Assembly (NCBI GenBank): GCA_016860985.1
Contig: BOKM01000001.1
Location: 789,857-853,856 of the forward strand
DNA: 64,000 bases
DNA from: Patescibacteria group bacterium
Lineage (GTDB): Bacteria > Patescibacteriota > Dojkabacteria > GCA-002793355
Direction of reading: 5' to 3'
In this document: one piece after another, positions 5,718 to 23,359 of the stretch
Layout: each line of letters begins with the position of its first letter
Numbering within the stretch: the first letter of the stretch is position 1
Translations under genes and position numbers: made by a program
The notes under the pieces: generated by a model
The model's database searches: none
Seen by the model: the letters and a program-made list of their open reading frames with translations, nothing else
What the model was told of the DNA's origin: nothing

Positions 5718-5745
5718 GTCGGCCAATATTGGAATATGAACAAAT

Positions 5746-7030: not shown

Positions 7031-7504
7031 ATGAGAACTACAATTATTCCAGCACAAATAACGACTGTTGAGGACAAGATCGCCGGATCACTTAACATGA
7101 CCCAAATCTTGATCCTCATGTTTCCGGTTCTTTGGACTGCGCTCATCTACATTTTGTTTGCGCCTGCCATGAAACTTGTACCCTACAAACTAGGACTCAT
7201 TGGTGTTGTGATCATGATCTGCTTGATTCTAGTTATTCGAATAAAAGACAAAATAGTAGCTGAGTGGCTTGGAGTGGTACTCAGGTATCAATTCCGTCCG
7301 AAGTACTGGCTTTATAACAAAAACGATACAACCAATCGCATTATTGATATTCCTGACATCCCAGATATTGCCGTTATTAAAAGAAAAACAACAAAGAAAG
7401 CATCTAGTGATCAAAAGACCGAAATAAATATTTCTGACCTTGTTCGTCTCGAGCAATTAATCGACTCAGGCAAGGTAGCCGTTCGTTATCAAATGAAAAA
7501 TTAA
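7031..7504 (+). CDS. VirB3/PrgI-like small T4SS membrane protein
   Basis: Two N-terminal TM helices then a hydrophilic tail; sits immediately upstream of VirB4, as VirB3 does. Confidence 0.4.
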   Translation: MRTTIIPAQITTVEDKIAGSLNMTQILILMFPVLWTALIYILFAPAMKLVPYKLGLIGVVIMICLILVIRIKDKIVAEWLGVVLRYQFRPKYWLYNKNDTTNRIIDIPDIPDIAVIKRKTTKKASSDQKTEINISDLVRLEQLIDSGKVAVRYQMKN

Positions 7505-7508
7505 AACT

Positions 7509-8126
7509 ATGAGTATTTTTAGCAAATCTAAAAAATCTAGTAGCCGTCAACAAATCCAGATTAAAGAAGTCGTGGATAATATCCTCGTTCTGCCTAATAA
7601 CGAATATCGGCAAATCCTTGAAACTTCATCAGTCAATTTTGAGCTCAAGAGTGAAGAAGAACAGGATGTGATTATCGATAGCTTTCAAAACTTCTTAAAC
7701 TCACTTCCGCGTGAAATCCAAATACTCGTTCGTGTAAGGGAAGTCGATATTGATCGCTACGTCGAAGATATTGGCAAAACTAAAGATAAAGAAACTATTC
7801 CTGCCTACAAAAAGCAGATTGAGGGCTATTGCTCATTCGTTAAAAAACTTGTTTCAGGTAACAAAATCCTTTCGAGGCGTTTCTACATTGTCATTCCTTA
7901 CAAACACACTGAGCGTCATCAGGACATGAAACTCATCAAAGAACACTTGAACCTTGAGAAGGACATTATTATTAAAGGTTTGGAGAGAATGCAGATGAAA
8001 GCCCGAAGCATAACAGGTCTTGAAATTCTCAATTTATTTTATGGCTTCTACAACCCGGAAAGTTTGAAAACTCAGGCAATTACAAAGGAAACTGTCGAAG
8101 CCTTACTAAAAAACAACTATGTTTAA
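7509..8126 (+). CDS. VirB4-family ATPase, N-terminal fragment (split gene)
   Basis: VLPNNEYRQILETSSVNFELKSEEEQDVII resembles the N-terminal region of Gram-positive VirB4/TraE homologues; 205 + 599 aa = full VirB4 length. Confidence 0.5.
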   Translation: MSIFSKSKKSSSRQQIQIKEVVDNILVLPNNEYRQILETSSVNFELKSEEEQDVIIDSFQNFLNSLPREIQILVRVREVDIDRYVEDIGKTKDKETIPAYKKQIEGYCSFVKKLVSGNKILSRRFYIVIPYKHTERHQDMKLIKEHLNLEKDIIIKGLERMQMKARSITGLEILNLFYGFYNPESLKTQAITKETVEALLKNNYV

Positions 8127-9918
8127 TTTAAAGAAAAAAATCACTAGCCTCAAACCAATTAAAGCGTGGCAAAAGAAGCGCAAGCTCAAGGCCATGACAA
8201 ATCAGGCCGTTAAAATTGCTTTTGGCACGCAAGATCAAGTGGATTTAATCTCTTACGCAGGACTCAAAGAAGAGTCTAGCTATTTGCAGATAAACGACCG
8301 ATTCGTCAGAACTATGTTTGTCTCGGGATACCCTTATGTGGCTTCAACTGGTTGGCTTAATAACCTGATTAACTTTAATCATGATATTGATATCAGCTAC
8401 CACATCGAACAAGTTGATCCTTTAACCGCCCTGCCCAAACTGATTAGAAAAATAACTGAACTAGAATCCACAAAGCGCACCATGCTCAAAGAAGGCAAGG
8501 TTATCGGGAGCGAGATTACTGATCCTCTTGAATCTGCTATGGAGCTTAAAGACAAAATCCAGCGGGGCATGGAGAAGCTGTTCCAAATCTCAATCTATAT
8601 GACGATTGGTGCGGAATCACTCATTGAGCTAAATAAAGTCACTAAACTTTTAGAAACTGTCATGCAGACGAGACTCTTCTACATCAAGCCTGCCACTTTT
8701 CAGCAGATCGAAGGCTTGCAGTCCATTCTCCCCAGAGCTGAGAATAAATTAGCTCAAAAACGTAACCTTGATAGCTCAAGCGCTGCCCTTACTTTTCCTT
8801 TCGTCTCATCTGAACTCGTCCAAGAGTCAGGTATTCTCTATGGCATCAACAAATCCAATAACTCACTGGTGATCATCGACCGCTACTCCTTAAATAATGC
8901 TAACTCGATTATTTTTGCACAATCTGGATCGGGTAAAAGTTATACCGCCAAGGTCGAAATCCTCCGCCACCTCATGCAAGGCACCAAAGTCATCATTATC
9001 GACCCTGAGCGCGAATACAAACAGTTGGCGGCCAGTGTTGGTGGAACATATATCAAACTCTCAGCCACTTCCAAAGAGAAAATTAATCCGTTTCAATTTT
9101 CCCAGCACTCGGTAACGCAAGAGAATAATTTATCTGAACACATTCAGGATTTAACCGAGCTCATTTCCCTCATGGTTGGCTCACTCACCTCAGAGGAGCG
9201 GGCATCGGTTGATCGCGCTCTGCTTCTCACCTACAAAGAGGCCAAGTTAACGCCTCGCAAAAATGCCAAAAAACAAAAAGAAGTTGAATATCCACTACTT
9301 AAGGATTTCTACAAAAACCTCAAAGCCATGAAGCATAAGGATTTATGTGACAGACTTGAGAGATTTGTAAAAGGGTCGCTATCAACCGTCTTTGATTCTC
9401 AAACAAATATTCAATTGGATAACCGCCTGATTGTCTTTGACATTAAAGACTTAAACGAATCCATTAGATCAATCATGATGATGGTGGTGGCCAACTTCGT
9501 AAATAATGAGGTTAAACAAAATCCCCAGAAGCGAATGCTCGTTATTGATGAGGGATGGATACTTCTCCAAGAGCCAGAGAGTGCGAGGTTTATCTCTGGA
9601 TTAGTTCGTCGTGCCAGAAAATATTATCTGGGTGTCACGATTACCTCCCAACAAGCCAACGACTTTCTTAACCAAGACTACGGCAAGGCCATTGCTAGTC
9701 AGTCGTCTCTCCGAATCCTGATGCGCCAAGATACGACCACCATCAAAAAAGTGGCTGATGAGTTCCATTTATCTGCATATGAACAACACTATCTGCTAAC
9801 CTGTGATCGGGGTGAGGCTTTAATTATTGCTGATCAAAACCATGTTGCAGTGAAAATTGTGGCCTCAGAGCAAGAGCATCCACTTCTGACTACTGATCCC
9901 CGGGAAGTCTATATCTAG
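8119..9918 (+). CDS. virB4: VirB4/TraE-family T4SS ATPase (C-terminal about 600 aa)
   Basis: GYPYVASTGWLNNL motif, Walker A AQSGSGKSY, Walker B VIDEGW, conserved C-terminal region. Confidence 0.8.
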   Translation: MFNLKKKITSLKPIKAWQKKRKLKAMTNQAVKIAFGTQDQVDLISYAGLKEESSYLQINDRFVRTMFVSGYPYVASTGWLNNLINFNHDIDISYHIEQVDPLTALPKLIRKITELESTKRTMLKEGKVIGSEITDPLESAMELKDKIQRGMEKLFQISIYMTIGAESLIELNKVTKLLETVMQTRLFYIKPATFQQIEGLQSILPRAENKLAQKRNLDSSSAALTFPFVSSELVQESGILYGINKSNNSLVIIDRYSLNNANSIIFAQSGSGKSYTAKVEILRHLMQGTKVIIIDPEREYKQLAASVGGTYIKLSATSKEKINPFQFSQHSVTQENNLSEHIQDLTELISLMVGSLTSEERASVDRALLLTYKEAKLTPRKNAKKQKEVEYPLLKDFYKNLKAMKHKDLCDRLERFVKGSLSTVFDSQTNIQLDNRLIVFDIKDLNESIRSIMMMVVANFVNNEVKQNPQKRMLVIDEGWILLQEPESARFISGLVRRARKYYLGVTITSQQANDFLNQDYGKAIASQSSLRILMRQDTTTIKKVADEFHLSAYEQHYLLTCDRGEALIIADQNHVAVKIVASEQEHPLLTTDPREVYI

Positions 9919-9920
9919 CT

Positions 9921-10535
9921 ATGAATCCAAAGCTAGTACTTACACTCTGGTCGTTTCGCAAAGAACTTAAATTCGTCCTCCTCGCATTCTTCACTATCCT
10001 CATGCTCCCTGTCATTGCGGTCATTCTACTGACTCAGGTGGGTATAAATATAATCTCTGACAAACTCGTAGATCAAAATGCCACAACTCAGGCCATTCAG
10101 ATCAAAGATCCAACCACTGGTGAGGTAGTAACGGAAATAAACCCCACCGTTGTCTGGCCAACTAAAGGGATAATTACTCTGGAATTTGCACAATCGAGTA
10201 TGTATCAGGTCTTTCACACTGGCATTGATCTCGCCAGCAAGCTTGATGAACCAGTGAATCCTGCTATGGACGGCACTGTTATTTACGCGGGAGAGATATT
10301 CTGGGGTTATGGCAAGCACGTCATTATTGACCACGGCAATAATGTGATGACCATCTATGCCCACCTAAACAAGATTTATGTCTTTAAAGGCCAAAAGGTG
10401 ACCACCAGCGACGTAATCGGTGGCCAAGGTCAAACTGGCTGGGCAACGGGAGTGCATCTTCACTTTCAGGTGAATGTATATGGCATACCAGTGAATCCAA
10501 GGGTGTTTTTAGATAATAAAACCGCTGCTAAGTAG
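9921..10535 (+). CDS. M23 (LytM-type) metallopeptidase with N-terminal TM; T4SS-associated cell-wall hydrolase candidate
   Basis: HTGIDLA ... IDHG ... TIYAHL ... GVHLHFQ M23 signature; start 3 nt after the VirB4 stop. Confidence 0.75.
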   Translation: MNPKLVLTLWSFRKELKFVLLAFFTILMLPVIAVILLTQVGINIISDKLVDQNATTQAIQIKDPTTGEVVTEINPTVVWPTKGIITLEFAQSSMYQVFHTGIDLASKLDEPVNPAMDGTVIYAGEIFWGYGKHVIIDHGNNVMTIYAHLNKIYVFKGQKVTTSDVIGGQGQTGWATGVHLHFQVNVYGIPVNPRVFLDNKTAAK

Positions 10536-10594
10536 AAGCATTTTATTTCGTAACGTACTATAATGATTAAGTACGAATTAGTATCAAAAGTACC

Positions 10595-10777
10595 ATGGTC
10601 ATGGAAGAACTATTAACATTAAAAGAGGCTGCAAATGTCCTCAAAGTACACCCAAACACCTTGAGGGATTGGGATAAAAAAGGGATACTTAAAGCTGTTC
10701 GGATTGGTATCAAAAAAAGCTTAAGATACCGAAAAGAAGATATAGAAAAATTTATTAGTCACAAAAACGGTAAATAA
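10595..10777 (+). CDS. small HTH DNA-binding protein (excisionase/MerR-like HTH_17)
   Basis: LTLKEAANVLKVHPNTLRDWDKKGILKAVRIG is a typical HTH_17 pattern; first gene of the RM operon. Confidence 0.55.
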   Translation: MVMEELLTLKEAANVLKVHPNTLRDWDKKGILKAVRIGIKKSLRYRKEDIEKFISHKNGK

Positions 10778-10779
10778 CT

Positions 10780-12363
10780 ATGACAAATAACAATCAAAAC
10801 ACTACTAAAGAGCAAGAGCGAGCCGAGCTTCACCGAGCCATTTGGCAAATCGCCAATGACTTACGCGGTAGTGTGGATGGTTGGGATTTCAAATCTTACG
10901 TGTTAGGAATGCTTTTTTATCGTTTCATTAGTGAAAACTTGACTAGCTATATCAATGCCGATGAACGACGATCTGGTAAAAAAGATTTTGATTATGCCAA
11001 ACTAACAGATAAAGAGGCAGAATTTGGAAGAACGGACACGGTAAAAGAAAAAGGCTTCTATATCTTGCCGAGCGAACTGTTTATTAACGTTTGCAAAAAT
11101 GCCAGAAATGACAAAAATCTTAACGAAACTCTATCAAAAGTTTTTACCAACATTGAAAACTCTGCAAAGGGATCAGTAAGTGAAGATGATCTTAAAGGTT
11201 TATTTGCCGATTTGGACGTTAATTCTAGCAAGCTTGGAAACACCGTAGAGCATCGCAATCAAAAACTAGTGAAGATTGTTGAGGCTATTGGTAATCTTCG
11301 CCTTGGTAATTACTCTGACAATACAATCGATGCTTTCGGTGATGCCTATGAGTTCTTAATGACCATGTACGCCTCTAACGCAGGTAAATCTGGAGGAGAA
11401 TTCTATACTCCTCAGGAAGTTAGTGAATTACTCGCGGAGATTACTACTGTTGGCAAGAAAGAAGTTAACAAGGTGTACGACCCTGCCTGTGGATCTGGCT
11501 CGCTCCTTCTAAAATTTGCGAAAGTTTTGGGAAGAGAAAATGTTCGTCAAGGTTTCTTTGGTCAAGAAATTAATCTCACTACCTACAATCTTTGTCGTAT
11601 CAACATGTTTCTACACGACATTAACTACAACAATTTTGACGTAGCTCTTGGCGACACACTTATTGATCCTAAACATTGGGATGATGAGCCATTCGATGCG
11701 ATTGTTTCCAATCCTCCCTATTCGATTAGATGGGAAGGTGATGCTAATCCACTTCTGATCAATGATCCTAGATTCTCACCTGCTGGAGTTTTGGCACCAA
11801 AGAGTAAGGCTGACTTGGCCTTTACAATGCATATGCTTTCGTGGCTTTCTACTAGTGGCACGGCTGCAATAGTCGAATTTCCCGGCGTTCTTTATCGAGG
11901 CGGTGCAGAACAGAAAATTAGAAAGTATTTAATTGACAACAACTATGTGGATACAGTGATTCAACTTCCACCAGATTTATTTTTTGGTACGACTATTGCC
12001 ACCTGTATTATCGTGCTAAAGAAAAGCAAAAAAGATAACAAAATTCTATTCATTGATGCATCGGCCGAGTTTGTTCGTAATGGTAATAAAAATAAATTAA
12101 GTGAAACAAATAGACTCAAAATCTTAGAAGCTTTTACATCTCGATCTGATGCAGAGTATTTCGCCAAGCTAGTTGATAGTAAAGATATCGCAATTAATGA
12201 TTACAACATTGCTGTATCAAGTTATGTAACTGCAGAGGACACTCGTGAAGAAATAAACATCACCGAGCTAAATGCAAAGATTAGCCAAATAGTGTCTAGA
12301 CAATCTGAGTTAAGAAAAGCGATCGATGAAATTGTTGAGGATATTGAAGGTGAAAACACATGA
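10780..12363 (+). CDS. hsdM: Type I restriction-modification N6-adenine DNA methyltransferase subunit HsdM
   Basis: GEFYTPQEV motif, SGS AdoMet motif, NPPY catalytic motif (SNPPYSIRW). Confidence 0.9.
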   Translation: MTNNNQNTTKEQERAELHRAIWQIANDLRGSVDGWDFKSYVLGMLFYRFISENLTSYINADERRSGKKDFDYAKLTDKEAEFGRTDTVKEKGFYILPSELFINVCKNARNDKNLNETLSKVFTNIENSAKGSVSEDDLKGLFADLDVNSSKLGNTVEHRNQKLVKIVEAIGNLRLGNYSDNTIDAFGDAYEFLMTMYASNAGKSGGEFYTPQEVSELLAEITTVGKKEVNKVYDPACGSGSLLLKFAKVLGRENVRQGFFGQEINLTTYNLCRINMFLHDINYNNFDVALGDTLIDPKHWDDEPFDAIVSNPPYSIRWEGDANPLLINDPRFSPAGVLAPKSKADLAFTMHMLSWLSTSGTAAIVEFPGVLYRGGAEQKIRKYLIDNNYVDTVIQLPPDLFFGTTIATCIIVLKKSKKDNKILFIDASAEFVRNGNKNKLSETNRLKILEAFTSRSDAEYFAKLVDSKDIAINDYNIAVSSYVTAEDTREEINITELNAKISQIVSRQSELRKAIDEIVEDIEGENT

Positions 12364-14561
12364 CGGACTTAAAGTTAGACATAAAATTAGAAAATTGTTA
12401 TGGGATTAAGAAGCTTGATCATAAGTTTGATTTTTCAAAATGTCATACCTTTGTAATTTATGCTCCAAACGGTGTGATGAAAACATCCTTTGCAAACACT
12501 TTTAAAGACCTTGCCAGTGCCAAAGTACCCTGTGATCGCATCGACGATTCTCTAACACCGATTTGTGAGGTTTTAGATTGTAGTCAAAATACACAGCCTC
12601 AACCTGAATCAATTTGTGTTATTGAACCATATAACGAGAAAGCATTTGACTCTGAGGGGAAGGTGCTTACACTTCTGGCTAACGAAGAAGTTAGAAAAGA
12701 ATATCTTGGTATCTATTCAGAGTTAGATAAGGAAAAACAGTCATTAATTAAAACTCTTAAAAAAGTTTCAAAAAGTAATAACTGTGAGGCGGAATTAGTT
12801 TCGACTTTCTCAACAAGCAAGGAAAACATTTTTGAAGTTTTACTTAAAATAGTAGATGATTCGCGAAAGTCTACAGAAAAATATGATTTCAAATATAACG
12901 TAGTTTTCGACCCGGCAGGAAAAGTTAAGGATTTTCTAAATGAAAATAAAGAACTTTTTACCCAATACTGTGATAAGTACAATGATTTAATCAGTCATTC
13001 TGACTTTTTCGCCAAAAGTGGCGAAACTGTTTTTGGTACATCGGAGGCAAAAAGTCTTAGTGACTCAGTAAAAGGCAACGAGTTCTTTTCTGCTGGACAC
13101 GGATTAAATATAAAAAAATACGGTAGCATTGGTGACAATAAACGATTCAACGAGATAGTAGACGAAGAAATACAGAAGATATTTAACGATAAAGACCTAA
13201 AAGGTATTTTTGACAAAGTTGAGAAAAAGCTTAATGCAAATCAAACCCTTTCCGACTTCAAAAAATTGATAGAGAAAAATCCGGCACTTGTAGTGAAGCT
13301 TGCAGATTACGAACAGTTTAGGAAAGATGCATGGTTCAGCTTTCTCGGTCAAATTATTAATGAGTTGGATAAATTAGTTGCTTTATACATTAGTAAAAAA
13401 ACAGAGATTGAAGATCTTATTAAAAAGGCGAATGAACAACAGTCGAAGTGGGAGGATGCCATTCAAGAATTCAGCGATCGATTCTTCAATATGCCATTTT
13501 CCCTGAGCATAGAAAATAAATCAGACGCAATTCTGAACACACAAACACCAACAATCTCCTTTAAATTTAAAGGGAAGCCCGTCGACAGAAAGAAGATGAT
13601 TGACGTTTTGAGTCAAGGTGAAAAAAGGGCGTTTTATATATTAAATGTGATTTTTGAAGTTAAGTCACGCCAACTTAGTGGTACAAAAACGCTATTTATT
13701 ATCGATGATATAGCAGATTCATTCGACTACAAGAATAAATACGCTATCGTAGAGTATTTGCATGATATTTCCAGAGATCCAAACTTTTACTCTATAGTGA
13801 TGACCCATAACTTTGATCTGTTTCGGACACTTCAATCCCGAGTGTTACAAAATAATAAATGGACTAATTCGCTCATAGCTGAAAAGGTGGCTGATGAGAT
13901 TCGTTTAGTTGATGCTGGAAGTAAAAATATTACTGATCCTTTCTCTTTGTGGAAAAGGGACGTTCACAGTAACGAAAAATACCTTATTGCTTCGATTCCT
14001 TTTGTTCGCAATTTAATCGAATATAAAGATAGTCAAAATATCAGCTATCGTCTATTAACTCACGCACTTCACCAAAAAATGGCAGACCCCGTAAATAGTA
14101 TTAAAGCAACAGACGATATTTCTATAAGTGACTTGGAGCCTATTTTTTTAAGTGTTTTGTCAATCTCGCCTTTTACATATACAGACACATCTAAAAAAAT
14201 TATTGATATTATCGACAAATTGACTACAGATATTGTCAGTGCAGCAGACTCGGATTCAATAGTACTTGAGGATAAAATAATTCTGGCAATTGGATCTAGA
14301 TTGAAAGCTGAAAAATATATGTGGTCTAAGGTAACAGATCAGTCTGAAATTTCTGGAAATCAAACAGGATTATTATTTCGAAGATTTAAAGATGAATTTG
14401 CTAGTGACCAAAGCTACAAAGACAAAATTCGAATACTTGAAAATGTCAACATTATGACTCCAGAAAACATACACCTGAACTCTTTTATGTACGAGCCGAT
14501 CTTAGATATGTCGATAGACGAGTTAAAGCATTTATATGGTGAGGTCAGTAAATTAAATTAA
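12360..14561 (+). CDS. ABC/SMC-type ATPase with degenerate Walker A and long coiled-coil insert (PrrC/RloC- or OLD/PARIS-like topology), embedded in the Type I RM operon
   Basis: N-terminus LDIKLENCYGIKKLDHKFDFSKCHTFVIYAPNGVMKTS parallels the SbcC/Rad50/OLD N-terminus (GPNGSGKST replaced by APNGVMKTS); about 300 aa coiled-coil; ABC signature-like LSQGEKRAF; Walker B LFIIDDI; H-loop-like THN; about 250-aa C-terminal domain of unknown function; start overlaps the hsdM stop (ATGA). Confidence 0.5.
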   Translation: MTDLKLDIKLENCYGIKKLDHKFDFSKCHTFVIYAPNGVMKTSFANTFKDLASAKVPCDRIDDSLTPICEVLDCSQNTQPQPESICVIEPYNEKAFDSEGKVLTLLANEEVRKEYLGIYSELDKEKQSLIKTLKKVSKSNNCEAELVSTFSTSKENIFEVLLKIVDDSRKSTEKYDFKYNVVFDPAGKVKDFLNENKELFTQYCDKYNDLISHSDFFAKSGETVFGTSEAKSLSDSVKGNEFFSAGHGLNIKKYGSIGDNKRFNEIVDEEIQKIFNDKDLKGIFDKVEKKLNANQTLSDFKKLIEKNPALVVKLADYEQFRKDAWFSFLGQIINELDKLVALYISKKTEIEDLIKKANEQQSKWEDAIQEFSDRFFNMPFSLSIENKSDAILNTQTPTISFKFKGKPVDRKKMIDVLSQGEKRAFYILNVIFEVKSRQLSGTKTLFIIDDIADSFDYKNKYAIVEYLHDISRDPNFYSIVMTHNFDLFRTLQSRVLQNNKWTNSLIAEKVADEIRLVDAGSKNITDPFSLWKRDVHSNEKYLIASIPFVRNLIEYKDSQNISYRLLTHALHQKMADPVNSIKATDDISISDLEPIFLSVLSISPFTYTDTSKKIIDIIDKLTTDIVSAADSDSIVLEDKIILAIGSRLKAEKYMWSKVTDQSEISGNQTGLLFRRFKDEFASDQSYKDKIRILENVNIMTPENIHLNSFMYEPILDMSIDELKHLYGEVSKLN

Positions 14562-14567
14562 GCAAAT

Positions 14568-15764
14568 ATGACTAAGCATCAAAGCAGAATAGACCAATTA
14601 ATCACAGAGCTCTGTCGAAATGGCGTGGAATTTAAAGAGTTAGGTGAATTAGGTTATTTTTATGGAGGTCTAACAGGAAAAAGCAAAGAAGATTTTAGTA
14701 ACGGTACGTCAAAATATGTTTCCTATATGAATGTGTATTCAAACATATCTGTAAATATCGAGATTGAGGACTTTGTAAAACTAAATTCCGATGAAAAACA
14801 GAATGCAATTGAATATGGTGATATTTTATTCACTGGTTCATCTGAAACCCCTGATGAATGTGGAATGTCTTCCGTACTGACGACAAAATTATCAGAACCG
14901 TTATATCTAAACAGTTTTTGTTTTGGTTTTCGACTTAACGATGTATCTTTATTTAATCCTGAATTTCTCAAACATCTTTTTAGAGGCAATTATGTCAGAA
15001 AACAGATTGCTAATACCGCAAGTGGCGTTACACGATTTAATGTATCAAAAAAACGTTTTGCAAAAATAAAAATTCCTGTTCCACCACTTGAAATCCAAGA
15101 TGAAATTGTAAATATTCTTAATAAGTTTACAGAGCTAGAATCAGAGCTAGAATCAGAGCTAGAAGCGAGAGTAGAACAGTATGAGTACTATAGAGAAAAT
15201 CTGCTGGATTATAATGCCAATGTTGAACATAAAACTCTTGGTGATTCTTTTTCTATGTTAGCGGGCCATTTCATTTCGGCGAACAATATATCAAATAATC
15301 AAGATGATATTAATCAATATCCCTGCTTCGGTGGCAACGGATTTCGTGGTTATGTGAGCAAAAAAAGTCATGAAGGGAGATATGTGTTGATTGGTAGGCA
15401 GGGTGCTCTTTGTGGGAATACAAAACGTGTTGATGGCAAATTTTATGCGACTGAGCACGCAATTGTGGTTACTCCTAAAAACGACATAGATATTAATTGG
15501 GCATTTCATATGCTGACATATATGAATCTCAACAAATATGCATCAAAATCAGCTCAGCCAGGTCTCGCTGTTGGAAATCTTGAAAAAGTAATGATTAAAG
15601 TACCAAAATTGAGTGAGCAAAGAAGAATTGCGTCAATACTGGATAAATTTGATTCTCTAGTTAATGACATTACAATCGGCCTACCAGCCGAACTTAATGC
15701 CAGACATCAACAATACGAGTATTATCGAAATAAATTGCTAACATTTAAAGAATATGTCGGATAA
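14568..15764 (+). CDS. hsdS: Type I RM specificity subunit HsdS (two target-recognition domains)
   Basis: Two TRDs separated by central conserved helix (LESELESELEARVEQYEYYRENLL) and C-terminal repeat of the same helix (ARHQQYEYYRNKLL). Confidence 0.85.
   Translation: MTKHQSRIDQLITELCRNGVEFKELGELGYFYGGLTGKSKEDFSNGTSKYVSYMNVYSNISVNIEIEDFVKLNSDEKQNAIEYGDILFTGSSETPDECGMSSVLTTKLSEPLYLNSFCFGFRLNDVSLFNPEFLKHLFRGNYVRKQIANTASGVTRFNVSKKRFAKIKIPVPPLEIQDEIVNILNKFTELESELESELEARVEQYEYYRENLLDYNANVEHKTLGDSFSMLAGHFISANNISNNQDDINQYPCFGGNGFRGYVSKKSHEGRYVLIGRQGALCGNTKRVDGKFYATEHAIVVTPKNDIDINWAFHMLTYMNLNKYASKSAQPGLAVGNLEKVMIKVPKLSEQRRIASILDKFDSLVNDITIGLPAELNARHQQYEYYRNKLLTFKEYVG
15132..15167 (+). repeat. 12-bp tandem repeat (GAGCTAGAATCA x2 plus one imperfect copy) inside the hsdS central conserved region
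   Basis: Direct reading; encodes (ELES)2-ELEA. Confidence 0.8.
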
Positions 15765-18700
15765 CAAACATACATACTACAACATGGTCGCGCAAGGCTC
15801 AGAGAGCACTGTGGTGGCTGAATATACTCGAGATGCAAATATGGTACGCGACGTTGGCTACCAAAGTGAGAATGATCTTGAGCAAACATTCATTAAACAA
15901 CTTCAATCTCAGGCATACGAATACGTTTCTATAAAATCCGAAGCAGATTTAATAGCAAATCTTAGACGACAACTAGAGAAGCTTAATAACTATTCCTTCA
16001 GTGATGGTGAGTGGGAAAAGTTTTTCGTTAGCACACTAGCTAACCCTAATCAAAGCATTGTCGAAAAAACCATCACTATTCAAGAAGATTACATTAAGAA
16101 CCTCACTCGCGATGATGGATCAATCAAGAACATTTATCTCATCAAAAAAGACAATATTCACGATAATTTTTTGCAGGTTATTAATCAGTATGCGACTGAG
16201 GATGGGCAACGCTCTAACCGTTACGATGTCACTGTCTTAGTCAATGGCCTCCCATTGGTTCATATTGAACTAAAACGCCGTGGAGTCGCCATTCAGGAAG
16301 CTTTCAACCAGATAAATAGGTATAACCGTGAGAGTTTTTGGGCTTCATCTGGACTCTTCGAATATGTGCAGATTTTTATCATCTCAAACGGTACTCATAC
16401 CAAGTACTACAGCAACACTACCCGCGCCCAGCATGTAAAAGATTCTAGTGAGGGTTCAGCCAAAGTAGGTAAGCGAACCAGTAACAGCTTTGAATTTACG
16501 AGTTGGTGGGCAGATGCTACTAATCGCCCAATTACCGATCTAATGGACTTTGCCAAAACCTTTTTTGCCAAACACACCATTCTCAATATCCTGACTCGCT
16601 ACTGTGTATTTACCACCGATAAGTTGCTTTTGGTGATGCGCCCATACCAAATTGTGGCTACTGAAAGGATTCTAAATAGGATCGAGGTCAGTACCAATTA
16701 TAAAAAAATGGGAACTGTCGAGGCTGGCGGATATATCTGGCATACCACTGGATCAGGAAAAACACTTACCAGCTTTAAAACCGCCCAGTTAGTCAGCAAG
16801 CTTATTGATATTGAAAAAGTAATCTTTGTGGTAGATCGTAAAGATCTGGACTATCAGACCATGCGTGAGTACGACAAATTTGAGAAAGGGGCGGCTAACA
16901 GCAATACCAGCACCGCGATTCTTACGAAACAACTAAGTGATCCAAATGCTCGAATCATAGTCACTACAATCCAGAAACTTGATCGATTTATTAGTCGCAA
17001 TGGTCAGCATGCTATTTTTGATGGTCATGTAGTGCTCATTTTTGACGAATGTCATCGTTCTCAATTTGGCGATATGCATGCCGCCATAACCAAAGCATTC
17101 AATAATTATCACCTGTTTGGATTTACCGGCACGCCAATCTTTGCCATCAACTCTTCATCAGGAGGTCGTCCCGACTTTAAAACCACAGAGCAAGCGTTTG
17201 GTGAAAAGCTTCACACCTACACCATAGTCGATGCTATTGCAGATAAGAATGTTTTACCGTTTAAAGTTGACTACATTTCTACGGTTCGTGAAGCCGAGGA
17301 TATTGAAGATAAAAAAGTGAATGATATCGACCGCGAAGCTATCCTCTCAGCGCCTGAGCGAATATCAAATATTGTCAAATACATTCGTGAACATTTCGAT
17401 CAAAAAACGAAGAGAAATAGTTACTACAAAATAAAAGATCGTCGCCTGGCAGGATTTAACTCAATATTTGCAGTTGCTTCCATTGATGTCGCTAAGAAAT
17501 ATTATTCGGAGTTTAAGAAGCAATTAGAAGGTCTCCCAAGCGACAAACAACTCAAAGTAGCCACTATTTATAGTTTTGGTGTGAACGATGAAGATCTTGA
17601 TGGAATGATCGATGAGAACTCAGAAGATACTGCAGGCCTTGATGTGAGCTCACGCGATTTTTTGGAGAGCGCAATTTCCGACTACAACAGGATGTTTGGG
17701 ACTTCCTACGATACCTCATCCGACAAGTTCCAAAACTACTACAAAGATGTGAGTGAGCGAGTTAAAAACCGAGAAATAGATATCTTGATTGTGGTAAACA
17801 TGTTTTTAACAGGATTTGATGCAACTACGCTCAATACACTTTGGGTCGATAAGAATTTGAGGCTACATGGTCTTCTTCAAGCTTTCTCCCGCACCAATCG
17901 AATACTTAACAGCGTAAAAACGTTCGGTAATATTGTGTGCTTCCGCAACCTAGAAAAGGCTACCAATGAGTCGATCGCCTTGTTTGGTGATAAAGAAGCC
18001 AGTGGTATCGTGTTATTGAAAGCTTATGACGACTACTATCACGGATATAAGGATGGAGATAAGGAAGTCCGTGGCTATGAAAGCTTAGTTAAGGAATTAC
18101 TAGAGAGATTCCCTGTTGGTGAGCGAATACTCGGAGAACAGAACCAAAAAGATTTCGTAAAGTTATATGGAGCAATTTTGCGAGTCCGTAATATATTGTC
18201 TACCTTTGACGAATTTGCTGGTAACGAAATACTAAGCGATCGCGACGTACAGGATTATCACAGTGCCTATATCGATATTTACAATGAATTCCGTAAGTCT
18301 AAAAAAGAAGAAAAGGAAAATGTTAATGAAGATGTAATTTTTGAAATGGAGCTTATCAAGCAAGTCGATATAAATATCGACTATATTCTTGGATTGATTA
18401 AGAAATATCATGAGGATCACACTAAGAACAAAGAATTATTGCTCGATATTAACAAGGCAATTGATTCAAGCGTTGAGCTTCGTAACAAGAAAGATTTAAT
18501 CAACCAGTTTATTGCCTCATTGGATATTCATTCGGTCGTTGATGATGATTGGCAAAAATTTATTGAAGGCAAGAAGGTTGAAGAACTCGAGTCCATAATT
18601 GAATCAGAAGGATTGGATCACGATGCAACATACACCTTTATCAAAAACGCATTCCGTAATGGAAACGTAACAACAACTGGTACTGCAATTACAAATATTT

Positions 18701-18813
18701 TACCTCCTGTATCCCGCTTTTCCCCGACTGGTGAGCGAACAAAAAAGCGTGAGAGTGTGATTGATAAATTGACTAGATTTTTTGAAAGATTTTTCAACAT
18801 ATCTAGTTCTTAA
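15754..18813 (+). CDS. hsdR: Type I RM restriction subunit HsdR (SF2 helicase/endonuclease)
   Basis: Walker A TGSGKT, DECH box (IFDECHRSQFG), helicase C-terminal motifs, 1019 aa; start overlaps the hsdS end. Confidence 0.9.
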   Translation: MSDNKHTYYNMVAQGSESTVVAEYTRDANMVRDVGYQSENDLEQTFIKQLQSQAYEYVSIKSEADLIANLRRQLEKLNNYSFSDGEWEKFFVSTLANPNQSIVEKTITIQEDYIKNLTRDDGSIKNIYLIKKDNIHDNFLQVINQYATEDGQRSNRYDVTVLVNGLPLVHIELKRRGVAIQEAFNQINRYNRESFWASSGLFEYVQIFIISNGTHTKYYSNTTRAQHVKDSSEGSAKVGKRTSNSFEFTSWWADATNRPITDLMDFAKTFFAKHTILNILTRYCVFTTDKLLLVMRPYQIVATERILNRIEVSTNYKKMGTVEAGGYIWHTTGSGKTLTSFKTAQLVSKLIDIEKVIFVVDRKDLDYQTMREYDKFEKGAANSNTSTAILTKQLSDPNARIIVTTIQKLDRFISRNGQHAIFDGHVVLIFDECHRSQFGDMHAAITKAFNNYHLFGFTGTPIFAINSSSGGRPDFKTTEQAFGEKLHTYTIVDAIADKNVLPFKVDYISTVREAEDIEDKKVNDIDREAILSAPERISNIVKYIREHFDQKTKRNSYYKIKDRRLAGFNSIFAVASIDVAKKYYSEFKKQLEGLPSDKQLKVATIYSFGVNDEDLDGMIDENSEDTAGLDVSSRDFLESAISDYNRMFGTSYDTSSDKFQNYYKDVSERVKNREIDILIVVNMFLTGFDATTLNTLWVDKNLRLHGLLQAFSRTNRILNSVKTFGNIVCFRNLEKATNESIALFGDKEASGIVLLKAYDDYYHGYKDGDKEVRGYESLVKELLERFPVGERILGEQNQKDFVKLYGAILRVRNILSTFDEFAGNEILSDRDVQDYHSAYIDIYNEFRKSKKEEKENVNEDVIFEMELIKQVDINIDYILGLIKKYHEDHTKNKELLLDINKAIDSSVELRNKKDLINQFIASLDIHSVVDDDWQKFIEGKKVEELESIIESEGLDHDATYTFIKNAFRNGNVTTTGTAITNILPPVSRFSPTGERTKKRESVIDKLTRFFERFFNISSS

Positions 18814-18822
18814 GGAGAATAT

Positions 18823-20082
18823 ATGAAAAAAATTAAAGTTAGCATTCAAGATGAAAATACACTCATCCTCCTTGAGGATGCCCAAAAAGGCGATCTCATC
18901 GATCTCAAATCTATTCATGAGGCTGATATTGATAAATCTTCAATTGAGTCACTCATCAAATCTATCAAAACCTCGGAATTTAATGCCCAGCTCGAAGCTG
19001 CGAAGCAAAATATTGCTAAACAGAAGGAGCTAGAGGCTGAGATTAAAACAAAGGATATCGTCACCAAAAAGAATGAAGAATTGGCAAAAAAAGATCAGGA
19101 AATTACTACTCTCAACACCAAAATCGAAGGAATAGCTAAACAAGTTGAATCCGATGCGAAAGTAAAGTTACTTGAGGAAAAACAAGCAATTGAGGAAACC
19201 TATCGACAAAAACTTACTGACAAAGATACAGAAATCCAAGAAATCAAACATCAGAAAGAGTTAAGCGAGCAAATATTGCAGGATAAACTCAAGGCAAGCG
19301 AGACATCACTTGTGTCTTTAAAAGAAATGCGATCCCGCATGAGCACCAAAATGATTGGAGAATCTCTTGAGGTTCATTGTGAAAATGAATTTAATAAACT
19401 CCGCCCGCTAGCTTTCCCAAGGGCTCAATTTGGTAAAGATAATGCTGTTTCATCATCTGGTTCAAAAGGTGATTATATTTATCGTGAGTACGACGACGAT
19501 GGCAACGAGATATTGACCATCATGTTTGAGATGAAGAATGAAGATGACTCGACGGCAACCAAGCACAAAAATAAAGACTTTTTTAAGGAACTAGATAAGG
19601 ATCGCCGTGAAAAGAATTGCGAGTATGCGGTTTTGGTGAGTTTACTGGAGAAAGACAACGAGTATTACGATGATATCGTCACCGTCTCTGACTATCCTTT
19701 GATGTACGCAATTCGCCCTCAACACTTTATTACGATTATCGGCTTTTTGCGCCAAGGGAATCTAAAATCACAGGAGTTGCAGAGAAAAATTCAAATTCTC
19801 AAGAATCAAAACATTGATGTAACCAACTTTGAGGCCAACATGAACGCTTTTAAAGATGCGTTCTCAAGAAATTATAACCTTGCGTCAGACCAATTTAGTA
19901 AAGCCATCGAAGAAATTGATAAAACAATTGATCACCTGAATAAGGTAAAAGAAAACTTACTTAAATCTGATAATAATTTGAGATTAGCCAATAACAAAGC
20001 GTCAGAACTTACAGTTAAAAGATTGACAGCGAATAGCCCTAGTGTGGCAAAGGCTTTTGAGGAAAGTGATAAACAACAATAA
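18823..20082 (+). CDS. coiled-coil protein with C-terminal PD-(D/E)xK nuclease-like domain (DUF2130-like)
   Basis: About 170 aa of coiled-coil, then GDYIYREYDDDGNEILTIMFEMKNE, which fits a D...ExK restriction-endonuclease fold. Confidence 0.4.
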   Translation: MKKIKVSIQDENTLILLEDAQKGDLIDLKSIHEADIDKSSIESLIKSIKTSEFNAQLEAAKQNIAKQKELEAEIKTKDIVTKKNEELAKKDQEITTLNTKIEGIAKQVESDAKVKLLEEKQAIEETYRQKLTDKDTEIQEIKHQKELSEQILQDKLKASETSLVSLKEMRSRMSTKMIGESLEVHCENEFNKLRPLAFPRAQFGKDNAVSSSGSKGDYIYREYDDDGNEILTIMFEMKNEDDSTATKHKNKDFFKELDKDRREKNCEYAVLVSLLEKDNEYYDDIVTVSDYPLMYAIRPQHFITIIGFLRQGNLKSQELQRKIQILKNQNIDVTNFEANMNAFKDAFSRNYNLASDQFSKAIEEIDKTIDHLNKVKENLLKSDNNLRLANNKASELTVKRLTANSPSVAKAFEESDKQQ

Positions 20083-20084
20083 AT

Positions 20085-20858
20085 ATGATTCAAAATTCAT
20101 TTAAATCCATTGCAATCAAGATAATCACCGAAGCTGGCAAACCCCTCCATTATCGAGAGATTACTAGGATAGCAACTGAACAGGGATTGCTCAAAACAGA
20201 TGGTAAAACTCCATGGGCAACCATGAACGCTCAGCTTTCAATGGATATTGTTAACAATGGCGAAAATTCTCAATTTTATAGAGCTCAGCCAGGATATTTT
20301 GGCTTACGAGAGCTTGGAGTCACTACTACATCAACGATTAAAAAATCATTAACCTATGTTGTAGCCAAGCATAAAGTAACTGATTCTCTCAATACCAAGC
20401 AAAAAGGTGATATTGCGGAAGCTAGAGTTGCAGAATTGCTCACACTCTACGGTGATGAGGGCTTAAGCTGTTACCGCCCAATTAGTGATGATGAGGGTAT
20501 CGATATTATCGCTAAGCGTCGTGAAAAACTTGAAGTCGCATATATCCAAGTCAAATCCAGTTACGGATATAAAGATCGAGGTTTTGTTTCCTCGGTTAGA
20601 GAAAAGCAAATTGTCAACAAAGAACGTATGATTTTAGTTTTTGTTTATTTTGACCTCTCAGAAGGCGATTTATTTGACCAAGTATTTTGTATCCCCGCCC
20701 CAGACTTCTTGCAACTGACTGCAAATGAAGATAAAAAGCCCGGGGAGCGTGTCTTCACTGTTGGGCTACGTAACCCTGATAAATCTAAATATGCTGAGTT
20801 TATGATCGAGAAGCGAGAGCTTGCGAATCGAATTATTGAAATTATGGATAAACTGTAA
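20085..20858 (+). CDS. HARE-HTH domain fused to Mrr-like PD-(D/E)xK restriction-endonuclease catalytic domain
   Basis: N-terminus SIAIKIITEAGKPLHYREITRIATEQGLLKTDGKTPWATMNAQLSMDI matches HARE-HTH; C-terminus DDEGIDIIAKR ... AYIQVKS matches the Mrr_cat GDGGIDG ... QCK motifs. Confidence 0.6.
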   Translation: MIQNSFKSIAIKIITEAGKPLHYREITRIATEQGLLKTDGKTPWATMNAQLSMDIVNNGENSQFYRAQPGYFGLRELGVTTTSTIKKSLTYVVAKHKVTDSLNTKQKGDIAEARVAELLTLYGDEGLSCYRPISDDEGIDIIAKRREKLEVAYIQVKSSYGYKDRGFVSSVREKQIVNKERMILVFVYFDLSEGDLFDQVFCIPAPDFLQLTANEDKKPGERVFTVGLRNPDKSKYAEFMIEKRELANRIIEIMDKL

Positions 20859-20860
20859 AT

Positions 20861-21694
20861 ATGAAATTATTAATAATTGGCGCTACTTCATATATCGGAT
20901 CACGCCTAGTTTTCGATCTACAAGACGAAAATGGTGTTGTGGGCACATACCATTCAAACAATACAATTTCACCAAATTTTATCCATGTAGATATTAGGGA
21001 CAGGCAATCTATTGATAAATTGGTCGCTGACGTTAATCCAGAGGTGGTTGTGCATCTAGCAAACTACTCAAGCTCCAGGCAAATAAAAGGCAATGAGGTA
21101 GATTTTCCAAAACTAAATCTTGAAGCAACCATCAATATTGTTGAAGTGCTAAATAAATATGAGAAACCCTTAATATTCTTTTCTTCTATGGCTGCTACTA
21201 CAAAGCAGGATCTTTATGGAGAACTCAAAGCAAAATCTGAGGAAATCGTCAAAACGGTAAAAAAGGGATTTGCGATTGTCCGCCCATCTGCGGTGATCGG
21301 GCTTAGTCCGGTACAATCACATAACAAAATCACAGACAAAATCCTCTCCGTTATAAACGGCCAAACCCAGGAATTTGATAATTCATGGATATTACAGCCA
21401 ACCTACATCGGACACCTATCCCAGGTGATTGAACAGATCGTTTTAAAGGGAATCTGGAATGAAGAATTTAATATATTTACGGACTACCCAGTGACACAAT
21501 ATCAGATCGCAACTGATATTCTTCAGAAATTTGATCTGAAAGCCAACCCCATTGATACTGGAAGAGTTGTTCCTTTGGCTAAGATTGATGACCAAAAGAT
21601 GAAGCTATTTAAACTTTCGCCGGCGTCGTATAAAGAAATTATCGATCGGATAGTATCTGAACTTAAAAATCCATTACTATTCCAGATTAACTAA
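20861..21694 (+). CDS. NAD(P)-dependent SDR-family epimerase/reductase (RmlD-like)
   Basis: Rossmann IIGATSYIGSRL and catalytic YGELK (YxxxK). Confidence 0.6.
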   Translation: MKLLIIGATSYIGSRLVFDLQDENGVVGTYHSNNTISPNFIHVDIRDRQSIDKLVADVNPEVVVHLANYSSSRQIKGNEVDFPKLNLEATINIVEVLNKYEKPLIFFSSMAATTKQDLYGELKAKSEEIVKTVKKGFAIVRPSAVIGLSPVQSHNKITDKILSVINGQTQEFDNSWILQPTYIGHLSQVIEQIVLKGIWNEEFNIFTDYPVTQYQIATDILQKFDLKANPIDTGRVVPLAKIDDQKMKLFKLSPASYKEIIDRIVSELKNPLLFQIN

Positions 21695-21714
21695 GAAAAT
21701 TCTATAATCAAACT

Positions 21715-21918
21715 ATGGCACCGAATAAAATTGGCAAAAAACTAAAAGACGCACGAAAGAAGCTTGGCCTCAAGCAGTCTGATGTGGCTGAAAAAGCAGA
21801 TATCAGTGTCAATTATTATGCTCGCATTGAGCGTAATGAAGAAAATCCTACCTTAGAAACCTTGGAACGTGTATTGAAGGCACTGAAACTTAAATCCTCG
21901 GATGTACTCTCGTTTTAA
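21715..21918 (+). CDS. XRE-family (Cro/CI-type) HTH transcriptional regulator
   Basis: LKQSDVAEKADISVNYYARIERNEENPTLETLERVLKAL. Confidence 0.75.
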   Translation: MAPNKIGKKLKDARKKLGLKQSDVAEKADISVNYYARIERNEENPTLETLERVLKALKLKSSDVLSF

Positions 21919-22157
21919 TCCTTCTTAAGCTTGATCGGATCAATTTTCCCGGATTGTTCATCTTCTACAATTTTGTGAGCGGCCATGTGAGCCAAGGCAG
22001 CTTTTTCCTCAAGATGTTTGATTGCATCTTCTCTAGTGCATGGCAAGTTCTGAGTTTTCAGGAATCGAATGGTTGTCTCGATATCTGCCTCACTAATTTG
22101 ATAACCTGAATTCTGTGTCATATGGTCGAAGTATAGCATTTTATATGTATCTCCCAA
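21915..22157 (-). CDS. hypothetical 80-aa protein, last gene of the minus-strand PLD module
   Basis: Start overlaps the PLD-gene stop by 17 nt. Confidence 0.3.
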   Translation of the reverse strand: MGDTYKMLYFDHMTQNSGYQISEADIETTIRFLKTQNLPCTREDAIKHLEEKAALAHMAAHKIVEDEQSGKIDPIKLKKD

Positions 22158-22587
22158 AATTCAAAAAATTAAACATATCTACGGCGAAGCCGCCGCCATC
22201 CAGGCGGCGCATAATTTCCCTGCTTTTTACTTGTGACAGGATATTCAAACTGCCTTCCCAAAGTATCTTTCGGTCAATTATTGCCAGTTTTCGGTGATGG
22301 TTGCCGACACAAAGAAAAACTTGAATTCCCAGGGCTTCTAGAGCCTCTATTTCGCTCTCGGATTGGACTTCGTAGCCGTCACTGTGATCATTTGGATCGC
22401 GAGTGATGATATAGACTTTAATTCCCTTGGAGTAGGCTCGCCTTAGACTTGGCCAGAGCATTTTCATTCGGCTTGAGGTGATAAATGGACTTTCGATGAT
22501 TATTTCTTCTGTAGCTTGGTCTAGATCCCTCAAGAAGGCTTTATAAAACGACTTTTCATCATGGAGTGCGGAGCTATAGTTATTCAT
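22141..22587 (-). CDS. single-HKD phospholipase-D-family nuclease (Nuc-like)
   Basis: HKD motif GNHHRKLAIIDRKILWEGSLNI (HxK(x)4D ... GSxN); 148 aa like dimeric Nuc endonucleases. Confidence 0.7.
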   Translation of the reverse strand: MNNYSSALHDEKSFYKAFLRDLDQATEEIIIESPFITSSRMKMLWPSLRRAYSKGIKVYIITRDPNDHSDGYEVQSESEIEALEALGIQVFLCVGNHHRKLAIIDRKILWEGSLNILSQVKSREIMRRLDGGGFAVDMFNFLNFGRYI

Positions 22588-23359
22588 GGCTCACCTCCAT
22601 ATTATCAATAAATACGATCTGACCATCTACCTCTTTGATCCCGAGTTCATCCAGTTTATAATACGTCCTTATAACACTGTCGAATAAGGGTTCCACCTGT
22701 GAGACAGTGAGCTCGTATTTTGCGTACCCCGAATTCTTGCCTTGTTTAATGTCATGGTAAAGCTGACCCAAACAAGTCGAAAGTTTTCCACTGTTTGAGG
22801 CTGGTCCAATAACTAGTACCAATGGCGCATTTGTTTCAATAAACTCATCTTTTTCGTACCCTAGTGGACCCACAGCAGCTTTAGGGTCTGGGTATCCGTC
22901 GATTATGTATCTATATGCAACTTGAACTTGCGAATCGCGTAACTTTGTTGCAAACGAACTAAGTTCGGAGGTAACATCACGAACCATATTAATAGCGACC
23001 GAAAATTTTACTGGAAAGGTTTCCTGGTACTCTTTCATTATTCGCCAAATAGCATCGAGATATGCCTCGTTATGATTATTAAGCATTCTATTGTTTTGAA
23101 TATCTTCGGCATTCACGCAGAACAGCAACTCGTATGGGGTGTTGATATTTTTTACAATTTCGGGCTTCACACTTGGATTGAACCCAGGCAAAACTCGTTG
23201 TGCGTGGGGGTCGTAAAGAAATTTGCCACCAATTTCGAGATACAGAGTGCCTCCTTTAAACTTCTCTAAACGTTTAGTTAAAGCCTCTTGCTGTAGCATT
23301 AGGTATTTCTGGTTGTCAAAACCAAGTTCTTTGTGTTCGATTATTTCCGTTGAGTTCAT
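22580..23359 (-). CDS. hypothetical 259-aa protein, first gene of the PLD module
   Basis: ORF with stop overlapping the PLD start; Rx4H (RMLNNH) HEPN-like motif present but not diagnostic. Confidence 0.35.
   Translation of the reverse strand: MNSTEIIEHKELGFDNQKYLMLQQEALTKRLEKFKGGTLYLEIGGKFLYDPHAQRVLPGFNPSVKPEIVKNINTPYELLFCVNAEDIQNNRMLNNHNEAYLDAIWRIMKEYQETFPVKFSVAINMVRDVTSELSSFATKLRDSQVQVAYRYIIDGYPDPKAAVGPLGYEKDEFIETNAPLVLVIGPASNSGKLSTCLGQLYHDIKQGKNSGYAKYELTVSQVEPLFDSVIRTYYKLDELGIKEVDGQIVFIDNMEVSHE

Follow-up and report, generated by a model that had tools for sequence, protein, structure and literature searches.

Nine genes in a Type I restriction locus

The 64,000-nucleotide (nt) stretch of Patescibacteria chromosome analyzed here (the window; contig BOKM01000001.1, positions 789,857 to 853,856) carries a Type I restriction–modification (RM) locus with further genes lying between and behind its hsd genes. 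Nine open reading frames (ORFs) on the + strand span positions 10595–21918, in the order HTH_17, hsdM, an ABC ATPase, hsdS, hsdR, a DUF2130 protein, a HARE-HTH nuclease, a short-chain dehydrogenase/reductase (SDR) and an XRE protein (Table 1). The junctions between them measure, in order, +2, −4, +6, −11, +9, +2, +2 and +20 nt, and the same gene calls are present on a 204,776-bp Logan contig from DRR258781. An earlier note on this DNA had described the nine genes as a composite defense operon in which three additional nucleases are stacked on a Type I system. Its coordinates are exactly those of our ORFs, as are the gene order, the single strand and the close spacing (−11 to +20 nt), and every domain call is borne out by Pfam, NCBIfam and PADLOC profile searches of the window proteins.

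Table 1. Coordinates of the nine genes and of the leader that precedes them
Feature	Coordinates	Strand	Description and profile matches
Intergenic leader	10536..10594	+	59 nt, 5' of the first gene; possible promoter and operator on weak evidence, function predicted only
HTH_17 protein	10595..10777	+	60 amino acids (aa), excisionase/MerR-like; Pfam HTH_17 E 4e-13; PADLOC mad1 E 1e-10
hsdM	10780..12363	+	Type I N6-adenine DNA methyltransferase; TIGR00497 761 bits (cut-off 243); HsdM_N and N6_Mtase
PDC-S46	12360..14561	+	733-aa SMC/Rad50-like ABC ATPase between hsdM and hsdS; weak SMC_N match
hsdS	14568..15764	+	Two target-recognition domains; two Methylase_S stretches E 3e-39; PADLOC Specificity_I E 6e-93
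hsdR	15754..18813	+	Type IC EcoR124-like restriction/translocase subunit; HSDR_N, SWI2_SNF2, T1R_D3-like and EcoR124_C, near full length
DUF2130 protein	18823..20082	+	N-terminal coiled coil and C-terminal PD-(D/E)xK; PF09903 E 8e-75, 252 bits (gathering score 26.7)
HARE-HTH nuclease	20085..20858	+	HARE-HTH (winged helix) and PD-(D/E)xK; PF05066 E 1e-18, 67.8 bits (cut-off 25.9); weak PDDEXK_5/Mrr_cat
SDR	20861..21694	+	277-aa extended SDR, RmlD/epimerase-like; RmlD_sub_bind E 2e-18
XRE/HTH_3 protein	21715..21918	+	67 aa; HTH_3 E 4e-16; PADLOC HTH_VI, capH and Control_protein E 3e-14 to 1e-9

The core of the cluster is, as had been proposed, a Type I RM system, with hsdM, hsdS and hsdR each intact. 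The hsdM gene encodes an NPPY motif at 11713–11724, and HsdR scores 573 bits against TIGR00348 (cut-off 285) and 1186 bits against PADLOC REase_I. All of the sequence criteria agree in identifying hsdM–hsdS–hsdR as a predicted intact system of Type IC. The HTH_17 protein is a putative transcriptional regulator heading this operon. A gene of the same family stands at the 5' end of RM operons with differing cores in eleven of the related loci that we compared and that are cited here by L numbers (L005, L008, L019, L021, L047, L066, L093, L106 and L187–189). Matches to the mad1, mad2, mad5 and mad8 profiles prompted us to consider membership of the MADS system, which was rejected on scores of 26 bits against 80 for MAD1, 50 against 720 for MAD2 and 24 against 400 for MAD5.

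The ABC ATPase between hsdM and hsdS proved, when PADLOC was run on the island, to be the catalogued candidate defense gene PDC-S46 (PDLC05023; E 1.5e-235, residues 5–732 on profile positions 3–718 of 719). A nuclease domain was sought in this ATPase and none was found, which leaves two added nucleases, DUF2130 and HARE-HTH, in place of the three that had been counted. The SDR has the motifs G7xxxxxG13 and Y119xxxK123, the latter being the intact YxxxK reported earlier. Assignment of the SDR as RmlD (dTDP-4-dehydrorhamnose reductase) was rejected because it scores 55 bits against TIGR01214, whose equivalog cut-off is 224, and we classify it only as a generic extended SDR.

Exchange of gene cassettes among related loci

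Named homologues of the cluster come from Patescibacteria, Pacebacteria, Roizmanbacteria and related candidate-phyla lineages, and three of the related loci are especially informative. L011 is 98.6% identical to window positions 18822–21765, which comprise DUF2130, the HARE nuclease, the SDR and the beginning of the XRE gene, where that locus ends. The identity begins 1 nt 5' of the DUF2130 ATG, and there is no DNA similarity further upstream, where L011 instead has an unrelated Type I system in the order hsdR–hsdM–hsdS followed by a PDC-S46 homologue. This homologue (720 aa; PADLOC PDC-S46 E 1.4e-265) shares 45% identity with the ATPase of the window. Synteny between L018 and the window extends over five segments with ∼75% nt identity, namely the VirB4/M23 flank, the HTH_17 region, DUF2130 plus HARE, XRE and the PLD flank, and L018 carries an unrelated hsdM–hsdS–hsdR without either the embedded ATPase or the SDR. 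The third locus, L111, has hsdM, hsdR and DUF2130 in common with the window (78% nt identity), and its slot between hsdM and hsdS (L111:2245-3711) is occupied by a 488-aa AAA_15/AAA_21 ATPase that is Old/AriA/GajA-like by PADLOC. A serine recombinase follows DUF2130 in L111, in place of HARE. L111 shows the hsdM–hsdS junction to be a hotspot for the exchange of ABC-ATPase defense genes.

Because exchange takes place at gene boundaries in L011, L018 and L111, the cluster can be divided into units, one made up of the HTH_17 gene and the RM core and one each for the embedded ATPase, DUF2130, HARE (with XRE) and the SDR. We consider it probable that the window carries a modular, restriction-centered defense island in a Patescibacteria chromosome, directly after a type IV secretion cluster, and that this island is a mosaic of independently mobile modules. 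A single, fixed composite system, as implied by the earlier note, is not supported by the comparison: related contigs trade the core RM genes, the ATPase embedded among them and the genes of the tail as cassettes.

That all nine genes nevertheless form one integrated defense system, with the additional nucleases and the SDR cooperating with the Type I complex and the SDR making or modifying a nucleotide, a sugar or a signal, seems to us very improbable. The tight spacing of nine genes on one strand speaks for such a system, and part of the order is indeed retained: hsdR–DUF2130–HARE–SDR–XRE is kept in full in L102 at 88% nt identity, and the short contigs L002 and L003 preserve the adjacencies hsdR–DUF2130–HARE and HARE–SDR–XRE at 99.9–100%. 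Against this, modules have been swapped independently at gene boundaries not only in the three loci described above but also in L139 and L190, and PDC-S46 and HARE accompany Type II, III and IV systems that are unrelated to this Type I enzyme. The distribution of the SDR also argues against its integration into a restriction system, as follows.

The SDR family that we found comprises 33 proteins, and its members lie next to HARE solely in the shallow lineage of the window (the window itself, L003, L011 and L102). Homologues at 74–76% identity have PNPase and a sugar-nucleotidyl transferase as neighbors or are surrounded by assorted genes, those at 53% and 43% identity are in housekeeping neighborhoods, and RM genes are never next to SDR homologues within this 43–76% range. 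In the syntenic locus L018, from which the SDR is missing, the HARE stop codon lies 9 nt from the XRE start. Since the gene is missing there and its homologues occur in non-RM contexts, the SDR is probably a lineage-specific, recently inserted passenger that stands outside the defense function. A conserved link of the SDR to restriction is not supported, and this removes a tempting false lead: only direct evidence would justify following up the embedded reductase as a signaling or modification enzyme. The expectation that homologues of the downstream genes co-occur with RM genes elsewhere is borne out for HARE, with RM systems of various types, and also for the nearest DUF2130 clade, but fails for the SDR.

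The embedded ATPase and the two added nucleases

PDC-S46 belongs to a family of at least 4509 proteins that is named in no paper found in our literature search. The PDC families are ∼145 candidates released with a "guilt-by-embedding" study (10.1101/2024.01.29.577857). An AlphaFold model with a pLDDT score (predicted local distance difference test) of 84 has an SMC/Rad50/RecF-like ABC head, whose fold neighbors include PtuA and retron ATPases, together with a helical insert at residues ∼100–375 and an all-alpha C-terminal domain at residues ∼520–733 that bears an invariant TPxNIHxNSFMYEPIxD motif. On candidate-phyla contigs, PDC-S46 is always tied to a restriction operon. The order HTH_17–hsdM–PDC-S46–hsdS–hsdR(–DUF2130) is found in L187–190, with L190 matching the window from hsdM through DUF2130, and the order hsdM–RhuM–PDC-S46–hsdS–hsdR is found in the oral loci L191–192. 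PDC-S46 also occurs in Type II settings, between the methyltransferase and the restriction endonuclease in L139 and after a DpnII-type operon in L193–197. On plasmids of Proteobacteria, Firmicutes, Bacteroidota and Leptospira it is mostly stand-alone and sometimes beside other nucleases. From these contexts, PDC-S46 is predicted to be an autonomous module riding in RM operons, rather than a Type I subunit.

The anticodon nucleases PrrC and RloC, as in EcoprrI, provide a precedent for an ABC-ATPase protein inside a Type I hsd operon. The window ATPase is likewise encoded within a Type I hsd locus, and this likeness suggests a latent back-up effector. It differs, however, in having no match to a PADLOC PrrC or RloC model at E < 0.01 and no detectable HEPN or anticodon-nuclease domain at its C-terminus, and we rejected a PrrC/RloC identity. 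The arginine of a possible Rx6H motif in the ATPase is not kept in L011. The occurrence of PDC-S46 with Type II RM systems as well, and by itself on plasmids, means that it cannot generally depend on being masked by a Type I complex.

A separate observation concerns the Providencia plasmid NZ_CP097292.1 (L185), where a PDC-S46 homologue is located in the leading region, near tra genes. It adjoins a truncated ORF annotated as "type I RM subunit M" and an antirestriction gene.

RM genes in the related loci were annotated with home-made hidden Markov models (HMMs) and a crude ORF caller, and the counts given in this section are approximate. Many genes for Type III Res and for Type II and Type IV enzymes escaped these models, and twenty unassigned upstream neighbors were re-scanned with Pfam. 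The DUF2130 protein retains intact catalytic residues (E183, D217 and E236-x-K238), each at least 95% conserved among 70 homologues. The family is listed within the PD-(D/E)xK superfamily (PMC3424549), and in the literature we found it only in such a superfamily catalogue. An RM gene lies directly 5' of DUF2130 in 6 of 9 loci at ≥80% identity, in none of the 26 loci at 60–79% and in none of the 21 below 60%. An RM marker of any kind is present at ∼14 of 80 DUF2130-centered loci, about half of them in the RM-linked clade, and this figure serves as an internal control for the HARE linkage described below. The linkage between DUF2130 and RM is clade-dependent, being apparent from these neighborhoods in the nearest clade only. 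Farther relatives have as neighbors an ABC transporter (at 78% identity) or, at ∼50% identity, P-type ATPases and an aminotransferase.

PDC-S46 lies immediately 5' of DUF2130 in L011, with a gap of ∼25 nt, and in L139, where the pair sits between the Type II methyltransferase and restriction endonuclease. This direct succession keeps alive the idea that the two form an ABC-ATPase/nuclease defense pair comparable to Gabija, PARIS, Septu or HEC-02, which in the window would have been split by hsdS–hsdR, so that the island would consist of an RM system, an ATPase–nuclease system and the HARE nuclease. We regard this arrangement as possible but doubtful. The window order recurs in L190, DUF2130 adjoins other ATPases elsewhere (AAA_13 in L126 and L127, a TrlF-family ATPase on Lactococcus plasmid p275D), and a PDC-S46 homologue on a Pedobacter plasmid is followed by a DUF4365 nuclease. 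Each gene is, however, also found without the other: PDC-S46 lacks DUF2130 in L191–197 and on most plasmids, and DUF2130 lacks PDC-S46 in L018, L103–106, L111, L112 and L152. PADLOC, moreover, models PDC-S46 as a single-gene candidate.

Two further contexts of DUF2130 deserve mention. At ∼67–71% identity, a GmrSD_N (DUF262)–HNH nuclease follows directly after DUF2130 in L126, L127, L131, L132, L139, L141 and L065. In two of these loci, L126 and L127, the AAA_13 ATPase stands 5' of DUF2130, and AAA_13/DUF2130/GmrSD_N-HNH may be an unrecognized two- or three-gene defense cassette. On the Lactococcus lactis plasmid p275D (L099, NZ_CP016702.1), DUF2130 is followed by the TrlF-family AAA-like ATPase and adjoins a Type II RM system with two C5 methylases and a PLD endonuclease. 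The sugar-nucleotide gene rfbC is also nearby, and its resemblance to the SDR of the window is probably a coincidence.

The linkage to restriction is broader for the HARE-HTH nuclease. An AlphaFold2 model (pLDDT 78.5) has an N-terminal winged helix and a nuclease domain resembling those of the SPARDA DREN nuclease, Hjc, DpnI, I-Ssp6803I and NhoI. The residues E112, E117, D140 and Q155-V-K157 are invariant, the PDDEXK_5 match reaches 24.2 bits, slightly below the cut-off of 26.1, and PADLOC has no model that matches this nuclease itself. We found 632 homologues, many of which are 62–98% identical across differing candidate-phyla lineages. Of the 78 genome loci annotated around HARE, 54 have an RM marker no more than 3 kb away. 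Among the 69 loci with at least 1.5 kb of upstream sequence, the preceding gene on the same strand is an RM component in 35, a figure that includes two loci where it is an RM-following DUF2130. The components directly 5' of HARE are hsdS or hsdR from Type I systems, res or mod from Type III systems, IIG fusions, AlwI, a D12 methyltransferase and GmrSD-HNH, and the gap is usually −14 to +23 nt. In these neighborhoods the HARE nuclease is a conserved predicted add-on whose gene usually closes a restriction operon, whether of Type I, II, IIG, III or IV. HARE-HTH–endonuclease fusions are placed in N6-adenine RM neighborhoods in PMC4738411, citing Aravind and Iyer 2012.

One might instead suppose that the HARE nuclease, and perhaps DUF2130, is a selfish or housekeeping nuclease, either free-standing and homing-endonuclease-like or a repair or recombination factor, that builds up in mobile islands and hitch-hikes behind RM operons. 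The fold of the HARE nuclease resembles those of the homing endonuclease I-Ssp6803I and the Holliday-junction resolvase Hjc, its sequence identity across distant lineages is unusually high, its presence or absence is gene-precise, and distant DUF2130 relatives lie beside transporters and aminotransferases. A homing endonuclease, however, requires a conserved target site, and the genes 5' of HARE belong to unrelated RM types. In addition, the junctions are operon-like and often overlap the upstream stop codon, the neighbors are overwhelmingly restriction genes, and comparative genomics has already assigned HARE-HTH–endonuclease fusions to RM contexts (PMC4738411). We find this alternative rather improbable and retain the interpretation of HARE as one module of a restriction-centered mosaic.

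The XRE protein matches PADLOC Control_protein (E 1e-9) and resembles an RM controller (C) protein or an antitoxin, although its gene lies at the 3' end of the cluster. It may possibly regulate the HARE nuclease. An XRE gene is directly 3' of HARE in L018 and divergently oriented 5' of HARE in the Legionella-labeled loci L057, L068, L072, L073 and L085. Another recurrent neighbor is a ∼500-aa protein encoded immediately 3' of HARE in several loci (L009:10771-12252, L025:10758-12281, L028:6019-7542 and L093:10434-11921). The L009 version matches DUF8370/DUF8371 and PADLOC PDC-M36A, and the L025 and L093 versions have weak Cas4-like matches.

Proposed function, precedents and genomic setting

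A defense island assembled from such modules might operate in the following way. The HTH_17 protein would control a promoter within the leader of 59 nt, and transcription would run through the closely packed genes to give a single transcript or a few. The Type I enzyme would methylate self DNA and cut unmethylated incoming DNA. PDC-S46 would serve as an autonomous second-line sensor–effector of the ABC-ATPase defense class, carried in RM operons, with its conserved C-terminal domain probably triggering growth arrest or nucleic-acid damage upon the sensing of infection or of interference with restriction. As a regulated enzyme, either of a Type IV-like kind or independent of sequence in some other way, the HARE nuclease would deal with DNA that gets past the cognate RM system; the Type IV-like idea leans on the putative role of HARE-HTH as a reader of modified bases. 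HARE expression would be coupled to the RM operon and, possibly, also to XRE. DUF2130 may be a further nuclease add-on, possibly a partner of the ATPase, and the SDR a recently inserted metabolic gene that is merely co-located.

Several observations count against this account. It is gene spacing by itself that makes co-transcription of the cluster plausible: consensus scans for promoters and terminators gave chance-level numbers (37 against 38.3 expected, and 11 against 9.2, respectively), and because they are indistinguishable from shuffled sequence, they are silent on operon structure. The C-terminal domain of PDC-S46 has no Pfam family match and no PDB sequence match, and its effector activity is therefore a guess. 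DUF2130 may be a recently captured housekeeping DNA-processing protein, given its transporter and metabolic neighbors outside the nearest clade, and the very high conservation of HARE, together with the likeness of its fold to I-Ssp6803I, would likewise be compatible with a selfish endonuclease gene that spreads by horizontal transfer. The approximate nature of the neighborhood counts has to be borne in mind as well. Finally, the SDR is kept with its 2-nt and 20-nt junctions down to 88% nt identity (L102), and a local function within its shallow lineage is conceivable.

A stronger version of the modular interpretation would make HARE (with XRE), DUF2130 and PDC-S46 portable plug-in effectors of candidate-phyla bacteria that work with whichever RM system they join. 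They might, for example, act on DNA bound or translocated by an enzyme of Type I, III or IIG, or be set off by a block of that enzyme. We consider functional coupling of this kind unlikely. If it were true, RM operons would be general docking and expression platforms for second-line nucleases, and DUF2130 and the HARE nuclease would represent two new, experimentally unrecognized defense families. The locus is a clean natural example of how restriction operons of small-genome, phage-exposed candidate-phyla bacteria are built from interchangeable parts. It also supplies three candidate genes for defense assays: PDC-S46, the restriction-linked DUF2130 clade and the HARE-HTH nuclease.

The decoration of a Type I RM system with swappable extra defense genes is an already known kind of arrangement. 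The immigration control region of E. coli K-12, mcrBC–hsdSMR–mrr, consists of separate transcription units with no embedded genes. It resembles the window in placing a Type I RM system beside separate Mrr-like/Type IV nucleases for layered restriction, and differs in that the window genes are all on one strand with junctions of ≤20 nt.

The closest match to the embedded ATPase is found among the guilt-by-embedding systems (Payne et al. bioRxiv 2024; PADLOC PDC), with which the window shares a single-gene ABC ATPase nested among RM genes. In our data PDC-S46 is, by contrast, also appended to Type II operons and paired with DUF2130, neither of which is reported in the text of that study that we read. 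A second parallel is the RRDM island of enteropathogenic E. coli (EPEC), where DarTG2 is embedded in a Type I RM system in the order rptR–hsdM–darT–darG–hsdS–hsdR and the embedding site has been called a recombination hotspot (PMC12255303). Both loci open with an ORF for a small DNA-binding protein, followed by Type I RM genes among which a foreign defense module is embedded. RptR is a 79-aa non-classical helical repressor confined to Gammaproteobacteria (PMC12255303), whereas the first gene of the cluster encodes a 60-aa HTH_17 protein. In our comparison, the window ABC ATPase, between the M and S genes, was set against DarTG2 taken as lying between S and R. The HARE nuclease shares an N-terminal HARE-HTH and a restriction-endonuclease fold near N6-adenine RM genes with the HARE-HTH–endonuclease fusions described in PMC4738411 and with the winged-helix–nuclease Type IV enzymes of PMC11037411. 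What is worked out here is a 250–260-aa family with extreme conservation among candidate phyla and a last-gene position in Type I, II, IIG, III and IV operons.

The leader that precedes the HTH_17 gene contains a TATAAT sequence (10559–10564) within a 6-nt inverted repeat (CGTACT at 10554–10559 and AGTACG at 10570–10575), and positions 10540–10747 are 77% conserved relative to the syntenic locus L018. An Rfam search of the whole window returned no RNA families. The GC content falls to 0.32–0.36 over 12–16 kb, the region of PDC-S46 and hsdS, compared with ∼0.40–0.44 in the flanking genes, and this dip fits recent acquisition of these cassettes.

Directly 5' of the RM island, a type IV secretion/conjugation-like cluster (1318–10535) encodes a Replic_Relax relaxase, two type IV secretion system pilins, PrgI, a VirB4/TraG-like ATPase and an M23 peptidase. 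Genes for TraG/VirD4-like proteins, FtsK, ParA or integrase also adjoin the related RM–HARE loci L004, L005 and L009. The RM island may be cargo of an integrative conjugative element, the ends of which were not found. No tRNA gene marking an integration site was found, and a repeat search of 9900–22700 gave short direct and inverted repeats at chance level only, with no att-like flanks and no hsdS shufflon. Several of the metagenome-assembled genome records compared (L018, L022, L025, L028, L029, L031 and L034) are labeled "uncultured Gammaproteobacteria" or "Pseudomonadales", yet their loci are syntenic with or highly similar to the window, and these taxonomic labels look unreliable.

On the 3' side of the cluster, the opposite strand encodes a 148-aa PLD nuclease, a DUF1846 N-terminal ORF, an EpmA-like tRNA-synthetase paralogue and EF-P. 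The gene for the PLD-family nuclease (22141–22587, − strand; PADLOC MkoC E 5e-15, DrmC E 3e-6) converges on the cluster, and a 74–80-aa ORF (21915–22157, − strand) overlaps the XRE stop codon. Both are kept in the syntenic locus L018, and the PLD nuclease may be one further nuclease of the island, beyond the span of the nine genes. The 259-aa ORF at 22580–23359 (− strand) covers only about the first 204 of the 333 positions of the Pfam model for the DUF1846 N-terminal domain. Either the gene has been truncated, or the candidate-phyla version is short by nature.

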